Assembly: GCA_027317865.1 (NCBI GenBank)
Contig: DAHVQG010000001.1
Coordinates: forward strand, 192,001 to 256,000
Reading direction: 5' to 3'
DNA length: 64,000 bases
Source: Bdellovibrionales bacterium
Lineage (GTDB): Bacteria > Bdellovibrionota > Bdellovibrionia > Bdellovibrionales > UBA1609
In this document: positions 33,240 to 35,263 of the stretch, one piece after another
Numbering within the stretch: the first letter of the stretch is position 1
Layout of the letters: the number at the start of each line of letters is the position of its first letter
Made by a program: the position numbers and the translations under genes
The notes under the pieces: model-generated
Databases searched by the model: none
Seen by the model: the letters and a program-made list of their open reading frames with translations, nothing else
What the model was told of the DNA's origin: nothing

Positions 33240-33548
33240 CTACTTTACCATCTCTTTAAGTTCGCCGGACTGGTACATCTCCATCATGATATCGCTGCCG
33301 CCTACCAATTCTTTATTTACGTACAGTTGCGGAATGGTCGGCCAGTTACCGAATTCTTTTATCCCCTGACGAATTTCTTCGTCGTCGAGCACGTTAACGC
33401 TTTGAAATTGTGCGCCGAGTTCTTGCAGTATGGCGACCGCTCGAGCTGAAAATCCGCACTGCGGAAAGGCCGGCGTACCTTTCATAAATAATACAATGTG
33501 GTTTGCGGATAAGATCGACTCAATTTTTGATTTTGTGCTGACTTCCAT
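33240..33548 (-). CDS. grxD: monothiol glutaredoxin (Grx4)
   Basis: MKGTP..PQCGFS, WPTIPQLY, GGSDI. Confidence 0.96.
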   Translation of the reverse strand: MEVSTKSKIESILSANHIVLFMKGTPAFPQCGFSARAVAILQELGAQFQSVNVLDDEEIRQGIKEFGNWPTIPQLYVNKELVGGSDIMMEMYQSGELKEMVK

Positions 33549-33571
33549 TTTTAAATTCTCCCATGTAAAGT

Positions 33572-33590
33572 CTTGAGTTTTCGACTCAAG
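33572..33590. repeat. 7-bp hairpin near the IS end
   Basis: Minus strand CTTGAGT-CGAAA-ACTCAAG. Confidence 0.7.
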
Positions 33591-33604
33591 GTAAATTGTT
33601 AAAA

Positions 33605-33760
33605 AATAACAGATGACTATTAACCTCCCATTCGAGGTCTTCGTCTTTCGACTGAAGCCCCACCATTCCGGTTCAATAACAAGCGGCCCAATCTCCTTAA
33701 GCGGTCATAGTGACCAGATTTTAATTGCGGGCTTACCTGCTAAACTTGACCATCTGTGTG
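33605..33760 (-). ncRNA. putative IS110 bridge/seek guide RNA
   Basis: Closing stem ACAGATG/CATCTGT; two internal-loop hairpins whose loops match the target and donor sites; GAAA tetraloop. Confidence 0.78.
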
Positions 33761-33800
33761 AACTTCAATCTTTTTCTGTTCTTCATTCCTTTCAAAAAAA

Positions 33801-34829
33801 CTATGCTGCTTTTAATAGCGAGGGCTTATATACGCTCTCGCTCTTCCAAACAGCATAAACTACAGTCAGAAGTTTACGGCTAAGCGCGATTAACGCTCGC
33901 TTTTTGCCGCGTCTTCGTTCAATTCGATTAAAAAATTCTTGCAGCGGCCGCGCCGACGCTGTCTTCATTCGCACCACAGCATGGGCGCATTGTATGAGTG
34001 CTCGCCGCATCTCTTTGCGGCCGGCCCTGGTTACTGAGCCCATTCGACATTCGTCGCCACTTTGGTAAATCGTTGGCGTCAATGCACCGTAATTTGCAAC
34101 GGCTTTGCTATTTTCAAAACGATCCGCGTCAGCAATGGCACCAAAAAGTATTCGTGACGTCAGCTTGCCAATTCCTGGGATGGTCTCTATCCGCTCAATC
34201 ACCACGTCTTCAATCGTCATGATTTCGTTGGCAATTGATTTTTCGCTCTCAACCAGACATTCAATTGCGTGCATAAAGCCGGCAACAATGGCTTCAGTTG
34301 AAGACGATAATTTCATTTCGCAAAGTTGTACCTGCCAATCGTTGGCTTTAAAAAATGCCAACGGCAATTTTTGACCTTCTTGGCGCAAAAATCCACGAAG
34401 CGAGTTCATAAGCGATACACGCTTTCGAAGTAACGTCTCTCGCGCATTTGTAAGTTCGCGTAAAGTTCTCGTTTTACCTTCAGCCATGTGAACTTTGCGC
34501 GGCAACATATCGGCACGCGCGAGCTCTGCCAGTTTCTTGGCGTCAACTTGATCCGTCTTTTTACCACCGCTTTCGGCAATCCATTTCACTTCGTTAGGGT
34601 GAACGATATGAATGTCTTCACCAAGCTTTTTGAAATAATCGGCAATCCACTTCATTTGATTCCCAGCCTCGAATACAAAAAGCTTCGATTCGATGCCAAA
34701 AATGGCGATTAGGTCGCGAATGCCCTTCTTCGTCGGACTAACTGAACCTTTAAATAAAACTTTTTTCTTGTCGTTAAGCGCGTGAACGACAAAATCCTTG
34801 CCTGAGATATCCATTCCTACGTAAATCAT
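33801..34829 (-). CDS. IS110-family DEDD recombinase/transposase
   Basis: YVGMD, FEAG, KTDQVDA (DEDD RuvC-like); TIPGIG, ALTP..YQSG (Tnp Ser), ALSRKL; ATG 34829. Confidence 0.96.
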   Translation of the reverse strand: MIYVGMDISGKDFVVHALNDKKKVLFKGSVSPTKKGIRDLIAIFGIESKLFVFEAGNQMKWIADYFKKLGEDIHIVHPNEVKWIAESGGKKTDQVDAKKLAELARADMLPRKVHMAEGKTRTLRELTNARETLLRKRVSLMNSLRGFLRQEGQKLPLAFFKANDWQVQLCEMKLSSSTEAIVAGFMHAIECLVESEKSIANEIMTIEDVVIERIETIPGIGKLTSRILFGAIADADRFENSKAVANYGALTPTIYQSGDECRMGSVTRAGRKEMRRALIQCAHAVVRMKTASARPLQEFFNRIERRRGKKRALIALSRKLLTVVYAVWKSESVYKPSLLKAA

Positions 34830-35032
34830 TTTTGACCCCTTTGGTTTGTTGTTGGTAAACAACCAAGAGTCGAAAACGCGACTTAACGTCAACTTTAGAC
34901 TCACGGGGTCTTTTCTTTTTTCAGAGCTGGCCGATCGAAAATCGGCAGCAAAAAGACTTTGCGTCACTTTGCACCACCTTTCTTCGTCTCATAGCTCATG
35001 GAATCTCCTTTAGAATCGTTAATTCGATTTAT

Positions 35033-35263
35033 TTATTTTTTCAACAGGGTTTTAATTTGTAGCGCATGAACTTCGCCGGATTTGAATTCTGAAGAAAATA
35101 AATCCATTATCATCTTGTGCTGTTCGATTCGCGTTTTGTTTAGAAATGAACGCGATGAAACACGCACGTCAAAATGATCATTCGTCCCGGTTGTGTCGAT
35201 CACGGCCACGTCGCAATCGGCCAATGCGGTTTTGATTCGTTTTTCAATTTGTTCAGCCGTCAT
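35033..35263 (-). CDS. BolA/IbaG-family protein
   Basis: DHFDV.VSS..F..KTRIEQHKMI..VHALQIKT; usual partner of grxD. Confidence 0.93.
   Translation of the reverse strand: MTAEQIEKRIKTALADCDVAVIDTTGTNDHFDVRVSSRSFLNKTRIEQHKMIMDLFSSEFKSGEVHALQIKTLLKK

Follow-up and report, generated by a model that had tools for sequence, protein, structure and literature searches.

The window, as we call the 64,000-nucleotide stretch of DNA analyzed here, carries an IS110-family element on the minus strand at positions 33557-35003 (1447 bp), between bolA and a gene for monothiol glutaredoxin (grx). This element is very probably intact and has the layout of the IS1111 type, in which a short left end is followed by a recombinase with DEDD and Ser catalytic residues and then by a guide RNA gene of ~150 nt in the right end; it would move by the published RNA-guided pathway. 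Two-loop guide RNAs have been known in IS110 elements since 2024, and the window element is an ordinary example of the bridge recombinases that have been described. What the locus adds, as read from the junctions of its relatives, is clade-wide homing to Shine-Dalgarno (SD) sites.

The boundaries of the element are fixed because an empty-site allele occurs in the same samples. Metagenome contigs from two runs, X1 and X2, join position 33556 to position 35004, with 1447 bases absent, five letters (GGAGA) in common and no added bases. One empty-site contig extends for 692 and 50 bases on its two sides. Because GGAGA is present at both 35008-35004 and 33561-33557, the boundary is uncertain by five letters, and a model with an AG core places the limits of the element at 33558-35004. 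A junction comparison with the homolog L003 and empty bolA-grx sites in relatives were also used to delimit the element. Given the joint in the contigs, the empty site reads CTAAAGG-AG-AATTTAAAAATG in the sense of the transposase and its host genes, or TTAAATT-CT-CCTT on the plus strand, which is the target that had been reconstructed in an earlier note made from the letters of this locus. Insertion was precise, with a shared core and without target duplication, as is characteristic of the IS110 family.

The two host genes lie on the same strand, with bolA at 35263-35033 and grx at 33548-33240. In three genomes of the same genus, the element is absent, and bolA is followed by an SD sequence (AAGGAG or AGAGG), a few bases and the ATG of grx, at 13-45 bases from bolA; two other loci in this comparison have no bolA within reach. 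According to the sites of relatives and the empty-site contigs, the left half of the target with its core, CTAAAGG-AG (35005-35013, minus strand), is the SD sequence of grx, now found upstream of the element. The right half, AATTTAAAA, lies together with the grx start codon at 33545-33557 of the minus strand, an assignment based on the sequence, gene calls, relatives and the empty-site contigs. With the element in place, GGGAG from its right end stands as far from the grx start codon as the SD sequence originally did.

Both ends of the element are structured. The left end (34830-35004, minus strand; ~175 bp) begins with ATTCCATG and was delimited by sequence, homolog junctions and fold, and the right end measures 244 bp. 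The right terminus (33557-33590, minus strand) consists of the hairpin CTTGAGT-CGAAA-ACTCAAG (33590-33572), which is also predicted by folding, followed by ACTTTACATGGGAGA. A 16-nt inverted repeat, 88% complementary, relates the right-end hairpin (33577-33592) to a left-end hairpin (34862-34877).

The recombinase (transposase) gene occupies 33801-34829 of the minus strand and encodes a protein of 342 aa, to which homologs are alignable from residue 1. Both IS110 domains are present (PF01548, E 2.3e-20, residues 4-150; PF02371, E 2.5e-21, residues 212-292), and the protein scores 223.2 bits against NCBIfam model NF033542, "IS110 family RNA-guided transposase," which has a cut-off of 140. Among transposases with solved structures, IS621 (8wt6) is matched with an E value of 1e-16 and ISCro4 with 2e-15. 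The phmmer alignment with IS621 covers two stretches only, residues 3-127 and 213-331. The catalytic motifs D7, E54, D93, D96 and S257-G258 are present, and the segments GMD, FEAG, KTDQVDA and YQSG align with these stretches of IS621; roles for the DEDD and Ser residues are given in Hiraizumi 2024. The assignment of the protein to the IS110 family, made in the earlier note, is supported. Plasmid-borne relatives are at most 31% identical to it and are annotated generically as "IS110 family transposase." The recombinases of relatives in its own clade are 50-74% identical, while a 17-letter stretch in loop 2 of their RNAs is unchanged.

Several observations suggest that the system is apparently intact, as had been proposed. 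The recombinase frame is open, the catalytic motifs are aligned, and both the empty-site allele and other flanks of the element occur in the same samples. In X2, the occupied and empty alleles have similar depths (6.44 versus 6.86), and in X1 the contig of the element has a depth of 39.9 versus 16.5-19 for the flanks. Loose ends of contigs reveal at least three other left flanks for the same element in the same samples, all ending in AAGGAG. Three other right flanks, of at least three, match the guide at 7-8 of 9 letters in contig consensus sequences of 30 letters or fewer that were reverse-complemented by hand; two begin with AATTT, like the flank in the window, and one with TTTTTAT.

The assembled genome contains a single full-length copy together with a 72-nt relic on another contig, the guide and its site differ by one mismatch, and the subterminal inverted repeat has a length of just 5 bp. 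These features would also suit a copy that was recently immobilized, with its sequence intact but its mobility lost. We consider such a relic unlikely, given that the 342-aa frame is open with every catalytic motif in place, that X2 contains both the occupied and the empty allele at comparable depth and that the same element is found with other flanks in the same samples. Relics of ~70 nt, at G000:C42:5315-5386 (L002) and also in L004 and L035, match the beginning (~20 codons) of the gene for a related recombinase, with the rest of the element absent.

The predicted bridge/seek RNA domain of the apparently intact element lies at 33607-33759 of the minus strand, downstream of the recombinase gene, and its position 3' of that gene is the one that had been claimed by comparison with the IS1111 group. 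The domain is closed by the helix ACAGATG(G)/(C)CATCTGT, whose halves are ACAGATG at 33757-33751 and CATCTGT at 33615-33609 of the minus strand, and a T run (33601-33608) follows. Arm 1 consists of GCCC (33732-33729), GCAATTAAAATCT (33728-33716), the apical hairpin GGTCA-CTA-TGACC (33715-33703), GCTTAAGGAGATT (33702-33690) and GGGC (33689-33686). All strings and positions that the earlier note had quoted for the closing helix, the first arm and the loop strands are correct on this strand. When 33560-33800 (241 nt) of the minus strand is folded, the predicted energy is -69.2 kcal/mol versus -53.6 +/- 4.3 for shuffled sequences (z -3.59; 0/200), and the minimum free energy structure includes arm 1 exactly, in agreement with the arm read earlier from the letters. 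For the shorter segment of 156 nt (33605-33760), the minus strand folds at -47.7 kcal/mol (z -2.62) versus -36.4 kcal/mol (z -1.86) for the plus strand, a difference of 11 kcal/mol.

Relatives were collected by scanning metagenome contigs with the 17-letter pattern of loop 2, which gave at least 120 stretches, 80 of which were retrieved. There were 91 pattern matches; 17 that lacked the loop-2 context were excluded as chance or incomplete, leaving 74, and 13 of these 74, situated at contig ends or carrying variant stems (for example, L068 and L112), were unparsed for loop 1. The borders of loop 1 were set by a rule anchored on the conserved stem, which shifted the loop ends of L027 and L056 by one letter.

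Fifty distinct RNAs among the matches listed were aligned, and their RNAalifold consensus has two arms, each of which is an internal loop between two helices. In a test that used this structure on the alignment from which it was derived, 98.0% of 1100 cells are paired versus 89.9% in shuffles, double-sided changes affect 82 cells versus 19, and the covariation score is 0.272 versus 0.116 when shuffled (0/500) and at most 0.054 with the partners slid. For the outer closing helix in the 50 relatives, pairing with its own partner averages -14.0 kcal/mol versus -11.4 kcal/mol with swapped partners, which was equaled in 0 of 300 permutations. The arm-1 apical hairpin (33703-33715, minus strand) shows compensatory changes in 10-13 of the 50. 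At three conserved G-U pairs, the opposite strand would have A-C; the fold thus belongs to the transposase strand. A structured RNA with target and donor internal loops, as is characteristic of IS110 elements, is accordingly predicted by computation. A search of 33400-35200 with the covariance models of Rfam 15, at E values up to 10, detected no family and gave three chance-level matches (E 4.6-8.9) that fall far under the gathering scores.

Loop 1 is predicted to recognize the target. In its 5' strand (33716-33728, minus strand), the RNA alignment is hypervariable, and the last nine letters of this strand, TTAAAATCT (33724-33716), are complementary at 8 of 9 positions to the transposase-sense AG+AATTTAA, which is the core plus the right half of the target. 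The 3' strand (33690-33702, minus strand) contains AAGGAG (33698-33693), the left target half together with the core; when the three preceding letters are included, the match is 8/9. On the plus strand, the earlier note had described the 5' strand as matching the left target and core at 8/9, and AAGGAG(A) (33698-33692, minus strand) as the exact reverse complement of core plus right target. Both statements hold, and in the transposase sense they refer to the right half and to the left half plus core, respectively. The ATT that follows AAGGAG (33692-33690) repeats the letters with which the left end of the element begins and resembles a handshake guide as defined in Hiraizumi 2024.

The 13-letter ideal site implied by the strands of loop 1 occurs nowhere exactly in the 2.65-Mb genome (both strands), and seven copies are found with one mismatch. 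The element occupies a further one-mismatch site beyond these seven. With up to two mismatches, 135 copies are present versus 115 for a reversed control.

Across the clade, the 5' strand of loop 1 covaries with the right flank. Among the matches listed, there are 51 unique right flanks, and at positions +2 to +4 after AG|G, 79 of 153 letters match the loop strand versus a permutation mean of 51.9 (sd 5.5; 0/10000). The contiguous match to the loop strand averages 3.9 letters in these same 51 flanks. In L101, the 5' strand differs even at an otherwise constant CAT, and its own flank is matched at 9/9. For the 3' strand, GGAG is found both in the loop and in the left flank of 45 of 45 elements among the matches listed. 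In this set, no covariation with the left flank is seen for the 3'-strand letters that precede GGAG (24/123 versus a permutation mean of 24.7; 9/41 at position -1, among the matches listed). The covariation between loop and flank that the earlier note had proposed as a check in homologs is found for the right flank, for the right end of the element and for GCAG variants, but not for left-flank letters beyond GGAG. Within the subclade of the window (the window element, L003 and L098), discrimination is weak; in a hand comparison, L003 fits its own flank at 6/9 but the flank of L098 at 8/9.

The GCAG variants are L100 and L101, both from metagenome contigs. Each has GCAG in the loop-1 3' strand and at the end of its left flank, and their right flanks match the 5' strand at six and nine contiguous letters. 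As read from these loops and flanks, the two elements are naturally retargeted away from SD sites.

The loop-1 5' strand of the clade nearly always has the form G-CAT-NNN-CCT (alignment A1, columns 61-74). Contiguous pairing of this CAT with the start codon was considered and rejected, as it needs an ATG at a distance of 4, and the observed distances among the matches listed are 5-9, with one case of 2. A structural role for CAT and start-codon pairing across a bulge are both conceivable.

Loop 2 is predicted to recognize the ends of the element itself. Its 5' strand, GGAATGG (33663-33669, minus strand), includes GGAAT, which reverse-complements ATTCC, the start of the left end. Its 3' strand, AATGGGAGG (33624-33632, minus strand), includes ATGGGAG, which is the right-end terminus plus core, and then a G. 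The 3' strand and the right end are concordant in 54 of 55 cases among the matches listed, and all four A-variants, drawn from at least three lineages, have ATAGGAG in both loop 2 and the right end. The right end of L003 has one G fewer than its loop 2. Between the 5' strand (CGGAAT or CAGAAT) and the left-end start (ATTCT, ATACT or ATTCC), no clean covariation was seen in clade elements among the matches listed.

The loop matches might be by-products, with GGAGATT and ATGGGAGG being internal copies of the two junctions, the A/T-rich match at 8/9 arising by chance and the protein picking its site through GGAG. Such an origin would suit the facts that the invariant target letters are GGAG(G) only, that the left flank lacks covariation beyond GGAG and that A/T-rich guides cross-match within the subclade by hand comparison. 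We nevertheless judge it very improbable. It is contradicted by the right-flank covariation, by the complete match of L101 despite its replaced loop strand, by the occurrence of GCAG in both loop and flank of L100 and L101, and by the G-to-A change shared by loop 2 and the right end in 4/4 variants. The counts for the implied site in the genome (no exact and seven one-mismatch copies) also argue against by-products, as do the flanks of the element itself, since all four left flanks observed for it end in AAGGAG and four right flanks fit the guide at 7-8/9.

A guide RNA that specifies both the target and the element ends remains the preferred reading of the locus. Because the window RNA has a reversed strand order, a CT core in its own frame and handshake-like letters in both loops, we infer that it acts in the published pathway. 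By analogy with IS621 and IS1111 elements, the element would excise as a circle, in which the right and left ends abut around one AG/CT core, and the resulting junction would be ...CATGGGAG-ATTCC.... Recombinase dimers would bind the RNA, both strands of the circle junction would pair with loop 2, and both strands of the target would pair with loop 1. The serine would cut beside the core, and strand exchange would follow. The extra letters 3' of each 3' strand (ATT in loop 1 and G in loop 2) would pair with the incoming partner strand, functioning as handshake guides, and the element would then be inserted without duplication.

In the predicted circle junction (33557-33571 joined to 34981-35004), inspection by eye reveals TTTACA and TATGAG separated by 17 nt, a weak promoter-like pair oriented toward the recombinase gene. 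The circle junction of typical clade members would read TTGACT, 17 nt and GATACT. Promoters at such junctions have been described for ISEc11 and ISEc21 (PMC11187229).

In another reading, which we regard as most improbable, the structured right end would act as DNA through DNA-DNA complementarities, either guiding as a single-stranded hairpin in the manner of IS200/IS605 or serving as a protein-binding scaffold. In its favor, a simple sigma-70 scan of 33450-35150 found no promoter-like site, 0 of the 10 runs containing the region are recorded as RNA, and a strand-specific fold suits a single DNA strand equally well. Against it, the protein matches the "IS110 family RNA-guided transposase" model over its full length and also matches IS621. 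Published work on both the IS110 and IS1111 types describes co-purification of RNA and dependence on it (Durrant et al. 2024, PMC11208160, and Siddiquee et al. 2024, PMC11187229), and the four guide segments and the handshake letters mirror every point of that system.

As judged from the junctions of its members, the whole clade of RNA-guided elements to which the window copy belongs homes to SD sites. The first letter of the right flank is G in 47 of the 51 unique flanks among the matches listed, and GGGAG|G is thereby rebuilt. An ATG follows the junction in 49 of these 51 (at 5-9 nt in 48 and at 2 nt in one), and in 35 of the 49, again among the matches listed, the frame is open for at least 40 codons or throughout an available sequence of at least 20 codons. 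At left junctions of the clade, the host GGAG lies 6-7 nt before an ATG that is within the left end of the element.

A short frame begins behind the captured SD sequence (window 34964-34999, with its ATG at 34999-34997). It has 11 codons in the window and in L003 and 8-10 codons in other members, being in the same place in L005, L027 and L028. The frame may be coding, but its ATG doubles as a piece of the subterminal inverted repeat.

The left end (34815-35012, minus strand) folds at -56.1 kcal/mol (z -2.62). Within it, GACCCC (34910-34905) pairs with GGGGTC (34839-34834), an SD-like run just before the ATG of the recombinase, and read-through transcripts would therefore hide the ribosome-binding site (RBS) of the recombinase gene. 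That translation of the host gene is coupled to the element through its left end is speculation.

A broader proposal can be put forward tentatively, its chances being a little under even. The window element would belong to a large IS1111-type clade, of at least 120 stretches, whose RNA is hard-wired to the SD sequence (GGAG/G) and whose members are always co-oriented with the downstream gene. The right end would rebuild the host SD sequence, and a start codon in the left end, 6-7 nt past the captured SD sequence, would precede the fold that hides the recombinase RBS, so that host translation could gate the element. Most members, with ~3 free guide letters per strand, would be generalist homers to gene starts, and the subclade of the window, with a guide of 9-12 letters, would be site-specific.

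A search for further members of this long-guide subclade used a 20-letter pattern with up to two mismatches in 401 genomes of the phylum. Ten matched, and all nine matches other than the element's own were chance occurrences in unrelated, mostly coding DNA. Full-text literature searches, with a scope that lies outside ISfinder, target-logo supplements and the supplementary tables of Durrant, returned no description of this clade or of IS1111-type elements that target SD sites. A target consensus with GGAG is likewise absent from three supplementary files of PMC11187229, a set that is separate from its target-logo PDFs.

What the locus contributes is a naturally occurring and apparently active system of the IS1111 type, from an uncultured lineage whose family-level relatives bear the label Bdellovibrionales; the letters of this system for target, donor and handshake pairing are directly legible. 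The clade represents many natural retargeting events on one conserved scaffold, and homing to ribosome-binding sites spares the SD sequence of the downstream gene. These elements therefore provide comparative material on the minimal length of bridge guides, on mismatch tolerance and on how elements limit harm to their hosts.

The system shares its central features with IS621. Durrant et al. 2024 (PMC11208160) and Hiraizumi 2024 show that each loop of the IS621 RNA pairs with both strands around a CT core, and they also describe handshake guides, two letters 3' of each right guide that pair with the other partner after strand exchange. The DEDD and Ser-Gly motifs of IS621 align with the window recombinase. 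The window RNA likewise has two internal loops, for target and donor; both strands are read by each loop, with an overlap at a CT core (AG in the transposase sense), and the two or three letters that follow each 3' loop strand fit the other partner in the way of handshake guides. In contrast to IS621 (structures 8wt6-8wt9), in which the RNA is 5' of the gene, the window RNA is 3' of it, and the strand order is reversed because the RNA frame in its entirety is inverted with respect to the gene. Moreover, only two stretches of the proteins are alignable by phmmer, and no Rfam family matches the window RNA.

Resemblance to IS1111-type elements such as ISEc11, ISPa11, ISKpn4 and ISPst6 (PMC11187229 and PMC11208160) extends to layout. 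According to Durrant 2024 (PMC11208160) and Siddiquee 2024 (PMC11187229), the RNA of these elements is 3' of the gene, and in their seekRNAs, as described in the latter, the segment complementary to the top strand is 5' of the bottom-strand one. The window RNA, at 33607-33759, is downstream of the recombinase stop at 33801; of its loop strands, the 5' one is complementary to the transposase sense and the 3' one to the opposite strand, so that the top-strand match comes first, as in PMC11187229. The two loop matches overlap at the crossover, the recombinase of 342 aa is within the 330-350 stated for IS1111 transposases, and insertion is precise, with no duplication.

Differences from the IS1111 type are also apparent. 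The window protein is no more than 31% identical to any plasmid-borne relative, its target is an SD site rather than a REP sequence, attC or a transposon end, and guide variability is ~3 letters per strand in most of its clade versus 9-12 in its own subclade. Clade relatives share the subterminal inverted repeats of the type, such as ATGAAAAAGC (10-11 bp) in L028, whereas the window copy has only CCATG, which is offset and, at 5 bp, shorter than the 7-17 bp characteristic of IS1111. Because of this 5-bp repeat, we describe the element as IS1111-type in layout and not as a proven member of the IS1111 group.

A further parallel is offered by IS900 of Mycobacterium avium subsp. paratuberculosis, another member of the IS110 family. 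In IS900, the insertion falls between the RBS and the start codon, and the transposase runs antisense to the host gene. Doran and colleagues reportedly found, in 1997, that it targets translation initiation signals, and it is the precedent known in the wider family for such targeting. Our literature search found no analysis of a guide RNA for IS900. Like IS900, the window element resides in the region of the ribosome-binding site and start codon of a host gene and does so in one orientation; unlike IS900, it is co-oriented with that gene and cuts inside the SD sequence, which its right end rebuilds.
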